A stretch of 44,282 nucleotides of DNA from a virus. The position numbers and the translations under genes were made by a program. Shown in pieces: positions 33,581 through 44,282 of this stretch (within the stretch, counting starts at the first letter, position 1; each line of letters starts with the position of its first letter). The notes under the pieces are model-generated. The model had not been told where the DNA came from and searched no databases. It was given only the letters and a program-made list of their open reading frames with translations. The DNA lies in IMG/VR virus record IMGVR_UViG_3300010352_002455; one strand, given 5' to 3'.

Positions 33581-33892
33581 TTAACTAAAATAAAAGGTTT
33601 TACCGGTTCCGAATTTTTGTTGCTTAATAGTAGCCATAAAAGGAAAATCTGTTTTAGGTATTTTAGATAATGCTTCCTTTATTGGAGTAGCATTAGTAAA
33701 AAACTTTTTTTCAGATCCTTCAAATAATACCTTAACTATATATCTTCCATCCCCGTGCCGTGTTTTTACATTCGCTTCAAAATCAATTACCTCAATTTCG
33801 CAATTTACAACGTCTTCAACTGAAATTACAGGAACGGAAAAGATGTGTTTTCCTTCAAAAGGATCTATGTTAAAATCAGAAAATTTATTCAT
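33581..33892 (-). CDS. Hypothetical protein, apparently translationally coupled to the DGR RT
   Basis: 103-aa ORF whose start overlaps the RT stop by 8 nt. By eye it looks beta-rich and near-neutral in charge, so it is not Avd-like. Confidence 0.5.
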   Translation of the reverse strand: MNKFSDFNIDPFEGKHIFSVPVISVEDVVNCEIEVIDFEANVKTRHGDGRYIVKVLFEGSEKKFFTNATPIKEALSKIPKTDFPFMATIKQQKFGTGKTFYFS

Positions 33893-34931
33893 ATCTTATT
33901 ATTTTTTTAAGAAGGTTATTTGAGTTACAATGCTTTGCCCAACCGATATGAGGGGCAATTGCTTTCTTATAATCTAAAATAGAAATGTCTTTTTTATTCA
34001 ACTTTGCAGCTTTTCTGCAAAATCTTTTCTTTATGCTTTTTCGCATCCGGATATGTGTATGATAAAATACATATCCTACAAAATCAATACCTCTTTTTTC
34101 AATAGGGAAAACCTGATAATTGCCCTTTATTTGCAACTTTAGATTGTCTTTCATATATCTGTCTATCTCAAGATACAAATCTTGCAAATACGGCTTATTT
34201 TGAGCTAAAATTACAATATCATCTGCATAGCGATAATAATATTTTACCTGTTTTTCCTCTTTAATACAATGATCGAAATAAGTCAAATACAGGTTTGCAA
34301 AAAATTGACTTAAATAATTCCCTATCGGAACACCAGGAGCGGAATCAATTATTTCATCAAGTAATTTTAAGAGCTTAACATCTTTGATTTTTTTACGAAT
34401 AATAACCTTTAGGATATCATGATTTATGCTTGGATAAAATTTCCTAATATCAAATTTCAAACAATATTGAGTGTCTGAAACATTTTTTAAATCACGTTTT
34501 AAATCTCTTAAAACAGCGTGTATTCCTCGTTTTTTTATGCAAGAATATGTATTTGAAATAAAAACAGATATCCATATCGGTTCCAAGATGTTCATAATGG
34601 CATGGTGAACTATACGATCACGAAAAGGAAGTCTGTAAACAAGTCTTTCTTTCGGGTCGTGTATCATAAAAACACTATATTCAGACGTTACATAAGTTTC
34701 TGATATCAGTTCCTTTTGTAACTCATTTATGTTGTTGTTCAAGTTTTTTTCAAACAATCGAACACCATAACTCTTTTCTTTTCCTTGACTTGCTTTGTTA
34801 TATGCAAGATAAAGATTGTCAATTTCACAGATCTTTTCGTATAAATTTCCTATTCTTTTCATGCCTTTGCTTTTATTATGAGCTTTCGTTATTACTACCA
34901 GCACATTTTTTAATATGTTATTTTTTGCCAA
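33885..34931 (-). CDS. DGR-type reverse transcriptase
   Basis: ..VPIGNYLSQFFANLYL.. (the DGR-typical SQ motif), ..YYRYADDIVILA.. (YxDD) and N-terminal ..IGNLYEKICEIDNLYLAYNKA... The true start may be the internal ATG at 34862 (MKRIGNLYEKI..), which would leave about 100 nt between TR and RT. Confidence 0.9.
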   Translation of the reverse strand: MAKNNILKNVLVVITKAHNKSKGMKRIGNLYEKICEIDNLYLAYNKASQGKEKSYGVRLFEKNLNNNINELQKELISETYVTSEYSVFMIHDPKERLVYRLPFRDRIVHHAIMNILEPIWISVFISNTYSCIKKRGIHAVLRDLKRDLKNVSDTQYCLKFDIRKFYPSINHDILKVIIRKKIKDVKLLKLLDEIIDSAPGVPIGNYLSQFFANLYLTYFDHCIKEEKQVKYYYRYADDIVILAQNKPYLQDLYLEIDRYMKDNLKLQIKGNYQVFPIEKRGIDFVGYVFYHTHIRMRKSIKKRFCRKAAKLNKKDISILDYKKAIAPHIGWAKHCNSNNLLKKIIRYE

Positions 34932-34959
34932 GAGGCAGGGTCTTTACCTTTAAAATCGT

Positions 34960-35041
34960 ATTGCATAGGTGGGAGGTGTCGGTCGCATTCGCATTCGAGT
35001 TGTTGTAATTCGAGTTGTTGAAAACGAGCCCCGACGGCGAG
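34960..35041 (-). repeat. DGR template repeat (TR)
   Basis: The coding-strand register reads ..SPSGLVF-NNSNYNNSNANATDTSH.. with 7 AAY codons. It aligns without gaps to 35144-35225 and 35531-35612, and differs only where the TR has A on the minus strand. Confidence 0.9.
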
Positions 35042-35074: not shown

Positions 35075-35434
35075 TTATAGAATAATGTTTTTATAAACTT
35101 CTGTAAAAGTTTTACCTGCATGATCGGATGCTTTTTCCGATTCAAAGCAAAGGCGGGAGGCGTCGGCCGCAACCGCATACGAGACGTAGTAACTCGAGCA
35201 GTCGAAAACGAGCCCCGACGGCGAGGATGGGTCTATCCGAAACACCGGAAACCATTTTTTTTGATTGGTGTCCATCATGTCCGGTTTCCATCCATCGTTG
35301 ATTGCTTCTGTTAATACAATTGCATTATACTGATCTTCAAAATATGCCCGTAGGTCATCAGGTGAGTTTGAAAAATCTACTTTTGGTCTTTTGGTAACCT
35401 CAAATGCTTCATCAAGTGTTTCTGTTTTTTTCAT
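35075..35434 (-). CDS. DGR variable (target) protein 1, small and leaderless
   Basis: 119 aa. The C-terminal ..SSPSGLVFDCSSYYVSYAVAADASRLCFES.. contains VR1. Confidence 0.85.
   Translation of the reverse strand: MKKTETLDEAFEVTKRPKVDFSNSPDDLRAYFEDQYNAIVLTEAINDGWKPDMMDTNQKKWFPVFRIDPSSPSGLVFDCSSYYVSYAVAADASRLCFESEKASDHAGKTFTEVYKNIIL
35144..35225 (-). repeat. DGR variable repeat 1 (VR1), including an IMH-like 3' end
   Basis: In the 74-bp core (35152-35225) there are 13 mismatches to the TR, all at TR adenines. The 3' end is GC-rich (cgcctcccgcctttgcttt on the coding strand). Confidence 0.9.
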
Positions 35435-35461
35435 TTTTTTTTGTTTTATGCCTTTCGGCGG

Positions 35462-35941
35462 TTATTTAATAAATTTGGCGTATAATGCTGTAAAAGTTTT
35501 GCCTGCATGATCAGACTTTTCTTTCGATTCAAAGCAAAGGCGGGAGGCGTCGGTCGCAATCGCAACCGAGCAGTCGTAATACGAGTAGCAGAAAACGAGC
35601 CCCGACGGCGAGGATGGGTCTATCCGAAACACCGGAAACCATTTTTTTTGATTGGTGTCCATCATGTCCGGTTTCCATCCATCGTTGATTGCTTTAGAAA
35701 TAGTTTTAAGCTTTCTATAGACAATTTCATCATCAGTGAAGCCATTTCGTTTCATGTCAATTTCATTTATTTGTTCTTCGTCCAATTCATCACAGGCAGT
35801 TTGATATGATATAACCCTGTCAATTACACTTTTGGAAAAGAAATTCTTTCCAAAACTATCTTCAAGCATTGATTTGAATTCTTTAGAAGCTGTTTTATAC
35901 AACTCTCTTGCTTTTTTTTCTTCAATTTGTAATGTTTTCAT
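35462..35941 (-). CDS. DGR variable (target) protein 2, small and leaderless, paralogue of target 1
   Basis: 159 aa. The C-terminal ..INDGWKPDMMDTNQKKWFPVFRIDPSSPSGLVFCYSYYDCSVAIATDASRLCFES.. contains VR2. Confidence 0.85.
   Translation of the reverse strand: MKTLQIEEKKARELYKTASKEFKSMLEDSFGKNFFSKSVIDRVISYQTACDELDEEQINEIDMKRNGFTDDEIVYRKLKTISKAINDGWKPDMMDTNQKKWFPVFRIDPSSPSGLVFCYSYYDCSVAIATDASRLCFESKEKSDHAGKTFTALYAKFIK
35531..35612 (-). repeat. DGR variable repeat 2 (VR2), including an IMH-like 3' end
   Basis: In the 74-bp core (35539-35612) there are 12 mismatches to the TR, all at TR adenines. The fixed IMH-like differences are the same as in VR1. Confidence 0.9.
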
Positions 35942-36329: not shown

Positions 36330-36372
36330 CTCCGGAGCGAGGAATCGAACCACGCTGAAGAACCATTCCGGA
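36330..36372 (-). ncRNA. tRNA-like minihelix or tRNA 3'-half fragment (acceptor stem plus T-arm only)
   Basis: The minus strand reads tccgga(a)-11 nt-cgtgg-TTCGATT-cctcg-(c)tccgga-g. It has a canonical GGTTCGATTCC T-loop, a 6-bp acceptor-like helix and a G at the discriminator position. There is no D-arm or anticodon arm. Confidence 0.45.
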
Positions 36373-36378
36373 TTAGTT

Positions 36379-36948
36379 TTAGTCGAGGATCACCCAGTCT
36401 TCTGCTAAGATGTCTGTTTGTGAGGCCAACCAGCCATTTACAATTCTACCATTAGCATCTTTAAGACACAAGTAGGCAGTAAATTCTACCACATCACTTT
36501 CATCGATTTCAATTGCTTTTCCATCCATATCGAAGCAATCATGCAAATAGTAGTCTTTTACTGTTTGCGGGAGTGATTTGATGTTGTTTGCTACAACATC
36601 AACCCTGATTTCGTCAGCGGGGCGCATAAAAATAAACATTCCTTTTCCATTCCATCCTTCTCGTGCTACTCTTTTCCCTTGTTTTAAGGCTTTAATAGCA
36701 TCTCCGAATGTGAGGTTCCCATTTTCTGTTTCGTTAAAATCAAAAAGGACCTTACACTCTTTTCCTTCAACGAACAGCCTTGCCGCATCCGGATTAACTG
36801 TTCCGATTGAAATATTTCCATACGGAGTCATTTCAAAAAACATGTCGTTTTCAAAAGAACCGCATGTCACAACATCAAGAGTTATTAATTCTCCAGAACC
36901 GCGAACCTCTTTTTTTGTTACTTTAAATTTTGTAAGTACTTTGCTCAT
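36379..36948 (-). CDS. DUF2829-domain protein (Tad2-like anti-Thoeris candidate) with a ~80-aa N-terminal extension
   Basis: ..LTFGDAIKALKQGKRVAREGWNGKGMFIFM.. and ..NGWLASQTDILAEDWVIL match the DUF2829 consensus at both ends. Confidence 0.7.
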   Translation of the reverse strand: MSKVLTKFKVTKKEVRGSGELITLDVVTCGSFENDMFFEMTPYGNISIGTVNPDAARLFVEGKECKVLFDFNETENGNLTFGDAIKALKQGKRVAREGWNGKGMFIFMRPADEIRVDVVANNIKSLPQTVKDYYLHDCFDMDGKAIEIDESDVVEFTAYLCLKDANGRIVNGWLASQTDILAEDWVILD

Positions 36949-36960
36949 ATTATTTGTTTG

Positions 36961-37405
36961 TTTTAATTCCCGGCATCCGGCCGGTACGGTTAATTGCTCC
37001 CGCCTGAGACTTCAACTCAGGAGTGTGTCACTCGGGATCCAGAAATTGTAAAACAATTTCGTCGTTTATATGCCCTGATTTTTCAGGGGAGATTTCGTGT
37101 TACTGTCCGACTGTCAAGCGTGGTACTAATTTCCGCTTTGCCACTCTGAATTAACAGAGAAAAACCTGCCTTCGCCGTAGGCCCTACTTTCTCAATCATT
37201 GAGGTTTAAAAATAAAGAACGTCTCTTTTTTTGTCGGAGGTAGCTCTCCGATTGTGCCCTGCAGGAAAAACCAATTTCGGCAGGGCTTGAATGTGTTGAA
37301 TGTTATATCAATAAAACAAATTCAATGAAGTTAATCCGGGTGATCTGTGGCTTTGGCGTTAAACCTGTTTTCTTTTAAGAAAACGAAAGGGTTTTCCCAC
37401 CTTTT
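36961..37405 (-). ncRNA. Candidate structured non-coding RNA or long structured 5' leader of the DUF2829 gene
   Basis: No plausible ORF (stops in all frames), and visibly GC-richer than its flanks. At least 8 clean hairpins: 36970-36984, 37042-37060, 37073-37088, 37234-37251, 37256-37286, 37367-37384 and 37389-37398, plus a three-way junction at 36998-37037. The strand is assumed from the flanking genes. Confidence 0.4.
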
Positions 37406-37470
37406 TATTTTTTTTAAAAATAGATTTTGATAATATGGAATAGGTAATAATTCTATATATAAATAGCCAT

Positions 37471-37478
37471 CAAAACTA
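37471..37478 (-). promoter_or_regulatory. Candidate -7 box (TAGTTTTG) upstream of the structured region
   Basis: The minus strand reads tagttttg, matching TAnnTTTG, about 65 nt upstream of the first hairpin. No clear -33 element. Confidence 0.2.
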
Positions 37479-37527
37479 AAGTGCCCAGTATATAAAATCA
37501 TCATTAACATCTCGATTTCTCCTTTTA

Positions 37528-42474: not shown

Positions 42475-43602
42475 ATGGATTCACAAAAAAAAATATTTGT
42501 TGATTATATACCTTGTCAGGTGTCTTTCAAAAAAAGTTGCCGTCTATATTTTTATGCGTATAACCCAGAAATCGGCAAACTTAAAAGAGTTGTAATTAAA
42601 TGCAATACAATAAAAAATCGTTCTGAAAGGATTAAATATGCAAAGTCTTATTGTGAAGTTATTAACGATAAATTGAGGAACGGATGGAATCCTTTTGTTG
42701 ACAAAATGATGACAAGGGGATATGTAACATTAGAGTATGCAATTAATAATTTTTTGAAAGAAAAAGGAAAAGACAGTCGTCCTGCTACTAATAACAGCTA
42801 TATGTCCTACTGCGGAACCTATAAAACATGGCTACAGGATATTAATATGCTAAATAGTTACTGTTTCCTTTTTACAGAAACAGAGGCAAATAGATATATG
42901 TCTTATATTAGCTCTACTCGCACAATTACTTCACGAACATGGAATAATTATATTCGTTTTTTTACAACAATGTTTAACAATTTTATTGAAAAGCAATACT
43001 TAAAAAAGAATCCATTTTCGAACATAAAGAGAAAAAAAGTTGATGAAAAGAAAAGAGAGATAATTCCTCCAGATACGAGAAAAAAAATGAAAGAATATCT
43101 TATAAATCACAATTTTAATGAGTATTATATAATAATGTTACTATGCTATAGATGTTTCATTCGTCCAAAAGAAATAGGGTGTCTTAAAATTCAGAATATT
43201 GATTTCAAAAACAATCAAATAGAAATCCCTTCCGATATTGCTAAGAATCATCACAACAGAATTGTAGGCATTCCGGATGAAATAATGGAATATCTGAAAA
43301 CATTACAGGGTTATCCGAGAGATTACTATATCTTTTCAACGCGATGGAAGCCAGGAAAGCAATTAAAGCACACAAGGGATATTGGAAAAGTTTGGAACAA
43401 AATGAGAGAAGATTTACAGCTTCCGACAAAGTATCAATTTTATAGCCTAAAAGATACCGGAATAACAGAAATGCTTGAGGCAGGTGTCCCGGCAAAATTT
43501 GTCAAAGAATTAGCAGATCATAGCAGCCTTGATATGACGGAAAAATACACGCATAAAACTGCAGCTTCCGAAATTTTAAAATATAATAAATTGGAGTTCT
43601 AA
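42475..43602 (+). CDS. int: Tyrosine recombinase / phage integrase
   Basis: 375 aa. C-terminal catalytic region ..FIRPKEIGCLK.., ..KNHHNRIVGIP.. and ..ELADHSSLDMTEKYTH (H-x-x-R-like box and catalytic Tyr). Confidence 0.85.
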   Translation: MDSQKKIFVDYIPCQVSFKKSCRLYFYAYNPEIGKLKRVVIKCNTIKNRSERIKYAKSYCEVINDKLRNGWNPFVDKMMTRGYVTLEYAINNFLKEKGKDSRPATNNSYMSYCGTYKTWLQDINMLNSYCFLFTETEANRYMSYISSTRTITSRTWNNYIRFFTTMFNNFIEKQYLKKNPFSNIKRKKVDEKKREIIPPDTRKKMKEYLINHNFNEYYIIMLLCYRCFIRPKEIGCLKIQNIDFKNNQIEIPSDIAKNHHNRIVGIPDEIMEYLKTLQGYPRDYYIFSTRWKPGKQLKHTRDIGKVWNKMREDLQLPTKYQFYSLKDTGITEMLEAGVPAKFVKELADHSSLDMTEKYTHKTAASEILKYNKLEF

Positions 43603-44165: not shown

Positions 44166-44282
44166 TTATTTTCTTTTAACTGTACAATACCACGGGTTTG
44201 TTGCCCACCTGTCAAAAGAAAAAATAAAATTCTCTGTTTCTTCTGATGTATTAAATCCATCCATGTAGGGTGTTGTTTCGGG
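44166..44282 (-). CDS. 3' end of the junction-spanning CDS (same gene as 1..576; 44214-44282 duplicates 1-69)
   Basis: In-frame continuation ..DRWATNPWYCTVKRK with stop TAA at 44166-44168. Confidence 0.7.
   Translation of the reverse strand, partial: PETTPYMDGFNTSEETENFIFSFDRWATNPWYCTVKRK
44214..44282. repeat. Terminal overlap, copy 2 (identical to 1-69)
   Basis: Same 69-nt string as at the window start. It lies inside a CDS, so it is most simply a circular-contig overlap. Confidence 0.95.

Follow-up and report, generated by a model that had tools for sequence, protein, structure and literature searches.

One template repeat for two old paralogous genes: a phage diversity-generating retroelement with a probable recent gene conversion around its variable regions

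The phage genome deposited as IMG/VR virus record IMGVR_UViG_3300010352_002455, a stretch of 44,282 nucleotides (nt) that was analysed over its whole length and is hereafter called the window, carries on its minus strand a diversity-generating retroelement (DGR) in which two neighbouring genes of one family each hold a variable region (VR) that matches one and the same template repeat (TR). A reading of the letters alone, made without database searches (the sequence-only reading), had drawn attention to the perfect identity of the stretches lying next to the two VRs, and it is the origin of this identity that is considered here. The parts of the cassette, which also comprises a reverse transcriptase (RT), an element resembling the site for initiation of mutagenic homing (IMH) and a small open reading frame (ORF), are the following, in window coordinates:

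35462-35941, minus strand: target gene 2, the upstream gene, of long type, 159 amino acids (aa), of which the N-terminal domain is helical and the C-terminal module, common to both targets, contains VR2.
35613-35694, minus strand: pre-VR segment of target 2, 82 nt, the probable donor copy; long-type orthologues carry the same segment.
35531-35612, minus strand: VR2, 82 nt with homology to the TR; sites differing from the TR or between copies fall within 35559-35590.
35075-35434, minus strand: target gene 1, the downstream gene, of short type, 119 aa, with a distinct N-terminus and the same C-terminal module, holding VR1.
35226-35307, minus strand: pre-VR segment of target 1, 82 nt, equal to 35613-35694, not present in the TR and lying within the 170-nt tract described below.
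35144-35225, minus strand: VR1, 82 nt homologous to the TR; varying sites at 35167-35203.
35138-35166, minus strand: IMH-like 3' end of VR1, GACGCCTCCCGCCTTTGCTTTGAATCG; the VR2 equivalent is 35525-35553.
34960-35041, minus strand: the TR, 82 nt, which would read SPSGLVFNNSNYNNSNANATDTSHLCN and has seven AAC/AAT codons; identical in the contig L001 from another sample.
34866-34942, minus strand: RT-17 RNA motif in the space separating the TR from the RT start codon (Rfam RF03020, 50.9 bits for a gathering score of 40.4).
33885-34862, minus strand: DGR-type RT, 325 aa from the ATG at 34862 (PF00078, E 7e-17), with IGNYLSQ and YADD motifs.
33581-33892, minus strand: 103-aa ORF overlapping the RT stop by 8 nt; matches phrog_19665; isoelectric point 6.7.

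The anatomy of this locus is that of a DGR. The [LIV]GxxxSQ and YxDD motifs of DGR-type RTs are present in the window RT, whose NCBIfam matches are generic and below their cut-offs, and whose nearest relatives among deposited phage genomes are the DGR RTs of crAss-like phages (~66-70% nucleotide identity). Both VRs lie near the 3' end of their ORF, with 24 codons remaining before the stop. The peptide read from the TR is SPSGLVF-NNSNYNNSNANATDTSHLCN, and those read from the VRs are DCSSYYVSYAVAADASRLCF and CYSYYDCSVAIATDASRLCF. The differences between template and copies are adenine-specific: all 16 mismatches between the TR and VR1 fall on TR adenines (P about 1e-12 to 2e-12 if sites were random), as do all 15 of those between the TR and VR2 (P about 1e-11 to 2e-11 on the same assumption). 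All the defining DGR features open to testing here, namely the RT motifs, the A-specific TR/VR differences, the 3' position of the VR, the IMH and a variation confined to the VRs, are thus found at this locus, and the cassette is a multi-target one, since two VRs match a single TR, each with A-specific differences and an IMH of its own.

At the 3' end of the VRs, five TR-adenine sites are changed in the same way whichever VR, and whichever of the two genomes compared here (the window or L001), is considered. In this region, the VRs read CGCC..CGCCTTTGCTT where the TR reads CACC..CACCTATGCAA (in their longer form, GACGCCTCCCGCCTTTGCTT for the VR and GACACCTCCCACCTATGCAA for the TR), and the same VR/TR contrast is seen at the 3' end in every related cassette that was aligned. 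The IMH-like element differs from the corresponding IMH* of the TR by fixed A-to-G/T sites which are invariant between genes and genomes, and the SRLCF motif encoded at the IMH is nearly invariant in the target family. Because the contrast recurs in related cassettes, the five common 3' changes are, on these alignments, the fixed IMH/IMH* distinction that would mark the 3' limit of mutagenesis and not mutagenesis shared by the two genes; for the same reason, their interpretation as the trace of a duplication that followed mutagenesis was rejected.

Comparison of the two targets with each other reveals a short tract of identity inside otherwise diverged genes. The segments 35226-35307 and 35613-35694 are 100% identical in the alignment, and TR homology begins only at 35225 in target 1 and at 35612 in target 2, so that these 82 nt lie outside the TR. 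The perfect repeat in fact amounts to 104 nt (35204-35307 = 35591-35694), that is, the 82 nt and 22 bases of the VR, as no TR adenine falls within the opening 22 nt of either VR. Beyond this, VR1 and VR2 differ at 12 positions, every one of them a TR-adenine site, and the 170 nt from 35138 to 35307 are identical to their target 2 counterpart apart from these 12 sites. The tract has sharp edges on both sides of the alignment: on its 3' side, 18 of 63 positions differ (35075-35137), the post-VR tails of the two targets being only 71-75% identical, and 5' of 35307 the target genes are not alignable. Such a flank identity is, judged from the alignment, far beyond chance. The observations from which the sequence-only reading had started therefore hold under direct comparison, including a C-terminal module shared by two proteins whose N-termini differ, which is apparent in the translations.

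Evidence that both VRs change in nature comes from L001, a contig of 5,324 nt from sample 3300009694 of the Joint Genome Institute (JGI), which was reached through P0032, a protein encoded on it that is orthologous to target 1 and departs from target 1 in the VR only. This contig aligns to window positions 35626-30306 and, over these about 5.3 kb, it differs from the window by 19 substitutions and one extra codon, all of them inside VR1 and VR2. In VR1, there are 7 substitutions, and a coordinate check places 7 of 7 on TR adenines; in VR2, 12 substitutions are joined by one additional NNC codon, and the changes lie in AAC/AAT codons as read by eye. In the ~5.1 kb outside the VRs, which comprise the TR, the RT gene, two small ORFs and the primase gene, there are zero differences. 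Since only adenine-templated VR sites differ between otherwise identical genomes, one TR and its RT rewrite both loci, and both VRs, in nature. The proposal that a single RT/TR pair actively services two loci is borne out in this way, and that of independent homing into both copies is supported, as both VRs vary between the window and L001. Besides, neither of the two genes proves to be a decayed, invariant copy with non-adenine changes.

The extra VR2 codon of L001 occupies positions 46-48 of that contig, equivalent to the window junction 35581/35582, inside an AAC-AAC run and near the contig end. Codon indels opposite AAC are a described by-product of DGRs (Wu et al. 2018, PMC5758913), and the position of this codon suggests slippage of the RT; it may also be an assembly error near the contig end.

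As regards the age of the gene pair, related loci were recovered both via the target protein and via the RT. In seven of these cassettes (L002, L004, L005, L006, L007, L015 and L016), a long-type gene of ~150-160 aa and a short-type gene of ~120-136 aa are followed by a TR and an RT, the latter being 58-75% identical to that of the window. Among them are a Mu-like prophage, phage contigs of IMG/VR, and metagenome-assembled genomes of Bacteroidetes and Tannerella, and the N-termini and post-VR tails specific to each type recur in the seven. The adenine check of the VRs covered five of the seven: in L002, L004, L005 and L007, both VRs were counted to differ from their own TR almost only at adenines, and the VRs of L006 show the same pattern as judged by eye in the alignment. 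Because the same arrangement is found in seven cassettes with RTs this divergent, the long/short pair is, on this comparison, one of ancestral paralogues and not the product of a recent duplication, which also answers the question of whether one or two targets came first: the tandem pair is ancestral.

The target family is large, with 4,354 clusters (at 50% identity) found at E <= 1e-3 in a full HMMER search. Among its members, P0042, P0043 and P0080, of ~275-350 aa, consist of a long-type and a short-type module fused together, each with its own SRLC/SHLC motif, which suggests that, where the genes are separate, their products as a rule cooperate; the pair probably works as a unit. In L006, a third family member lies ~4.5 kb upstream of the pair and has a VR at 458-538 that is 81% identical to the TR. 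Since this third VR was found, the L006 DGR would serve three targets.

The reading favoured here, and held to be likely with good confidence, is that one TR serves an old pair of paralogues in which a recent gene conversion over 170 nt was followed by re-diversification of the VRs. It finds support in the related tandem loci, where none of the seven has identical flanks upstream of the VR and where similarity between the paralogues is limited to the TR-homologous VR and short variable extensions. The L002 paralogues are identical at 50 of 81 positions before the VR and at 49 of 63 after it, those of L015 share 169 nt at 85%, and in L016 similarity is restricted to the VR. Further support is found in L011 and L012, which encode nearly the same pre-VR peptide and nevertheless differ from the window segment at 14 of 82 nt, mostly at synonymous sites in L011; in the light of these differences in L011, synonymous sites are free to vary and selection on the protein offers no explanation for the identity.

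The direction of the transfer would be from target 2 to target 1, that is, from the upstream to the downstream gene, as the simplest reading of the type-specific residues. The pre-VR peptide encoded by both window genes, KPDMMDTNQKKWFPVF, is the long-type version (KPDMMDT), and the short-type orthologues P0036, P0038 and L002b have VADYN(D/N)P at this place. After the VR, each window gene has retained the tail of its own type, and it is because target 1 combines a long-type pre-VR segment with such a tail that target 2 is taken as the donor. In the same line, the long-type orthologues L008 and L010 carry 81 of 82 and 78 of 82 nt of the pre-VR segment, respectively. Their identities to target 2 are distributed unevenly along the gene:

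L008 against window target 2: N-terminus 0.80, pre-VR 0.99, VR 0.80, post-VR 0.52.
L010 against window target 2: N-terminus 0.77, pre-VR 0.95, VR 0.82, post-VR 0.94.

On these comparisons, mosaic exchange around the VR is also a feature of the relations between phages.

The homologues of target 2 in L008 (670-1149), L010 (795-1274) and L011 (937-1416), with 72-77% aa identity, are single genes on contigs that hold neither an RT nor a second target. In L008 and L010, the next gene encodes a Por_Secre_tail domain of the type IX secretion system. The VR-like regions of the three show non-A differences from the window TR, so that they would be served by a different TR or be orphaned.

Taken together, these data fit a model in which the single TR would be transcribed along with the structured RT-17 spacer, and the RT would make a complementary DNA (cDNA) of it, misincorporating opposite adenines. 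This cDNA would then replace the homologous 82-nt VR in either of the neighbouring genes, starting from an IMH-like element that both VRs have in identical form at their 3' end. In a recent event, homologous recombination of the kind known as interlocus gene conversion would have copied ~170 nt (the 82 nt before the VR, the VR and the IMH) from the upstream into the downstream gene, and mutagenic homing would afterwards have re-diversified the adenine-templated positions independently in each copy. The expected outcome is the one observed, namely perfect flanks next to VRs differing at 12 sites.

Several points weigh against this reading. The recombination event, with its mechanism and direction, is inferred solely from the pattern of the sequence, and the direction leans on few orthologues. 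The evidence for activity amounts to the comparison of two assemblies, of which L001 ends within the repeat (at 35626), so that the target 2 copy of the 82 nt is available in one assembly only. In addition, the exact 22-mer that opens the VRs and the TR was absent from JGI metagenome contigs and from IMG/VR in exact-pattern scans. Finally, with neither an Avd gene nor a GC-rich hairpin at the VRs, parts of the mechanism established for the Bordetella phage BPP-1 may not apply here.

Among the other explanations, the one that survives best is that the two genes each received the segment separately, by recombination with other phages. Pre-VR and post-VR segments have clearly been exchanged between phage lineages, and intragenic recombination of DGR targets has been proposed (Roux et al. 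2021, PMC8144416). Nevertheless, two events would be needed that delivered the same 170 nt without any non-adenine difference, the closest outside copy (L008) departs from the segment at one pre-VR position out of 82 and, in the VR, at non-A sites, and a donor in the same genome, 387 nt away, is more economical; such a double import is accordingly judged improbable.

Quite improbable, too, is a constraint at the nucleotide level, by which the 82 nt would be a cis-acting DNA or RNA element, involved for instance in target recognition and kept identical by selection. It is true that the segment is 95-99% identical in L008 and L010, when the remaining sequence is at 77-80%. In L011 and L012, however, 14 of the 82 nt are changed with hardly any effect on the encoded peptide, and the pre-VR regions of the paralogues differ freely in seven cassettes, the VRs of which look adenine-mutagenised in the five that were checked. 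A conserved hairpin is lacking as well: scanning for inverted repeats gave no result within the 82 nt, and a candidate GGAAACC...GGTTTCC, formed by the WKP and WFP codons, was rejected as a functional element because these residues are not conserved in the family.

A recent tandem duplication of the second gene, or of its C-terminal module, would leave flanks too young to have diverged, and the 104 nt of perfect identity between adjacent genes of the same orientation could be read in this way. This possibility is nonetheless highly improbable, given that seven cassettes, with RTs at 58-75% identity to that of the window, have the long/short pair as well, that the N-termini are unalignable, that the post-VR tails are 71-75% identical with each matching the orthologues of its own type, and that sharp edges inside otherwise old paralogues are not what a duplication is expected to produce. 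The sequence-only reading had left the choice between recent duplication and gene conversion; its second branch is the one that fits the sharp 170-nt tract, and the first gives way before the pair's recurrence in related cassettes. As for an assembly artefact, in which a mis-join or a collapse of variable reads would have created the tandem copy or its identity, VR heterogeneity and 104-nt repeats are indeed hard to assemble and L001 breaks inside the repeat, but this is scarcely credible when the junction between the target 1 N-terminus and the 82 nt shares no k-mer with target 2 and recurs in L001, which comes from a different sample, when the target 2 junction matches the orthologues L008 and L010, and when the tandem architecture is general in the lineage.

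Besides the gene conversion, the nature of the target proteins deserves attention. Both match phrog_11581, a family of unknown function (target 2 at E 1e-27), and 40 homologues of target 2 were found. They have zero Pfam or NCBIfam domains, and a sequence-profile search of the PDB returned nothing for them. AlphaFold2 (AF2) models reach a mean predicted local distance difference test (pLDDT) of 89 for target 2 and 87.6 for target 1, with a predicted template modelling score (pTM) of 0.81. Their elements are an N-terminal part made of helices, one long helix, a beta-hairpin, a loop of lower confidence formed by the VR, and a pair of helices at the C-terminus. For neither model did Foldseek find a PDB match at E < 1, and its matches in BFVD were only uncharacterised gut-phage proteins, some of them from crAss-like phages. 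A C-type lectin or immunoglobulin fold was accordingly detected neither by Pfam, nor by the PDB profile search, nor by Foldseek with the two AF2 models; on these models, the targets may still be a highly divergent variant of the C-type lectin fold.

By inspection, the targets have no signal peptide or transmembrane segment, and they are encoded outside the structural module, among early, replication and anti-defence genes, with a Tad2-like gene nearby and DNA methylases nearby in relatives. It is conceivable in this context that the cassette diversifies conserved, probably heterodimeric, small cytoplasmic proteins with a VR-bearing fold not described before, and not a receptor-binding tail protein; this idea is considered rather unlikely. 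If it were true, the DGR would evolve proteins that bind inside the cell, for instance to variable targets in host defence or takeover.

Turning to the remaining parts of the cassette, the RT-17 motif probably forms a structured spacer of the TR transcript, as its match and position suggest; the RT-18 and RT-14 models of Rfam give weaker matches overlapping it. No Avd-like Pfam or NCBIfam match was obtained in the ORFs flanking the cassette, and the inverted-repeat scan found no GC-rich inverted repeat or hairpin 3' of either VR. The 103-aa ORF has zero Pfam or NCBIfam matches. A homologue of it stands directly after the RT in L002, L004, L005, L015 and L016, is more distant from the RT in L017 and L018, and lies ~480 nt past the RT match in L021, the RT identities of the loci that have one going down to 49%; none was found in L006 or L007. 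From this conservation, the 103-aa ORF is a candidate for a non-Avd accessory protein of this DGR clade.

The element that hosts the cassette is a complete temperate tailed phage of ~44 kb. The window is the complete genome, of ~44.2 kb and 35% GC, with positions 1-69 identical to 44214-44282; since its first 69 nt are repeated at the window end, the assembly is circularly closed, and the presence of an integrase gene indicates a temperate phage. A tape-measure protein, a ClpP-type protease and a large primase-like protein are also encoded, together with a weak match to a major-head protein (E 0.003). The minus strand holds nearly all genes of the window, and the cassette is located in the early/replication part, where the order on that strand is a Tad2-like gene, a 90-aa ORF, target 2, target 1 and the TR, and thereafter the RT-17 RNA motif, the RT, the 103-aa ORF, a 111-aa ORF and the primase-like gene. 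In relatives, DNA methylases and a radical-SAM protein lie near the cassette, and the neighbours are not tail genes. Two further genes of this setting are:

36379-36948, minus strand: Tad2-like gene (Thoeris anti-defence 2), 189 aa (PF11195, E 3e-24), two genes upstream of the DGR targets.
42475-43602: integrase gene.

Two further stretches of this region were recorded in addition. The Tad2-like gene is preceded, on the minus strand, by a non-coding gap of ~580 nt (36950-37527) with GC-rich hairpins, and the 341 nt of it that adjoin the gene fold better than after shuffling (z = -3.1; none of 100 shuffled sequences did as well). The gap has no Rfam match even at E <= 1, and may be an undescribed phage non-coding RNA or leader. 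On the minus strand at 36334-36362, ~6 kb from the integrase gene, GCGTGGTTCGATTCCTCGCTCCGGAGCA resembles the T-arm and acceptor 3' end of a tRNA; ARAGORN made zero tRNA calls across the whole window, and the stretch could be a tRNA fragment or an attP-like remnant.

As one more DGR, the present cassette adds little, two targets per template being common and the activity of both copies being expected. Its value lies rather in a clean natural example of how recombination and gene conversion would act on the constant sequence around a VR, "ready-to-diversify" C-terminal modules being moved between paralogues and between phages. Attention is also drawn to a family of small phage proteins, large and uncharacterised, which occur in pairs as DGR targets, are encoded outside the tail module and have no recognisable C-type lectin fold; should they prove to be intracellular, DGRs would have a wider range of roles in phages than is known so far. 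Among the loose ends, the greater interest attaches to what kind of proteins these targets are, and to the conserved ORF of 103 aa downstream of the RT.

In comparison with the DGR of BPP-1 (mtd-avd-TR-brt), the present one has in common the adenine-only TR/VR differences, the AAC/AAT codons in the TR, a VR near the 3' end of the target, a GC-rich IMH-like element differing from the IMH* of the TR, a structured RNA segment between TR and RT, and a temperate phage as carrier. It differs from BPP-1 by its two targets instead of one, by the lack of a detected Avd homologue and of a GC-rich inverted repeat after the IMH, and by the targets themselves, which are proteins of 119 aa and 159 aa encoded among early/replication genes instead of a tail-fibre protein, with no C-type lectin fold detected and about 24 codons past the VR. 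Some of these absences have precedents, given that 29% of cassettes (architecture A) are without accessory gene (Wu et al. 2018, PMC5758913) and that a GC-rich inverted repeat downstream of the IMH is found in about 34% of DGRs (PMC5758913).

Multi-target DGRs are well known and represent about 15% of DGRs. Examples of such cassettes were given by Wu et al. 2018 (PMC5758913), and by the reports on the two-target gut phages nd4/nd12 (PMC10743442) and on Treponema denticola (PMC4891356). The likeness to them is that one RT/TR serves at least two VRs. What differs here is that the targets are small tandem paralogues of one family, whose pairing is kept across the RT clade and which are sometimes fused, whereas the two targets of nd4/nd12 (PMC10743442) are functionally different C-type lectin proteins. 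The crAss-like phage DGRs (crAssphage LMMB, PMC7290462; cr7_1) have the nearest RTs and, by inference, share the same host phylum, Bacteroidota, but their targets are tail-collar fibre or tail proteins adjoining the RT. That the same target family would be used in crAss-like phages was considered and rejected, as the phages with the closest RTs do not have the small-protein family.

Regarding the conversion itself, no description of gene conversion between DGR targets, of a converted flank or of module transfer at the nucleotide level was found in the literature searched, where recombination of DGR targets had been proposed from domain modularity (Roux et al. 2021, PMC8144416). The mosaic of C-terminal VR modules between genomes seen here is akin to the intragenic recombination considered in that study (PMC8144416). 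With interlocus gene conversion of tandem paralogues in general, the present case shares a short, sharply bounded stretch of perfect identity within paralogues that have otherwise diverged. The difference from general gene conversion is that the tract is centred on a VR that would have been re-diversified later, and it is because of this re-diversification that the conversion would be visible only at the non-adenine sites and in the flank.

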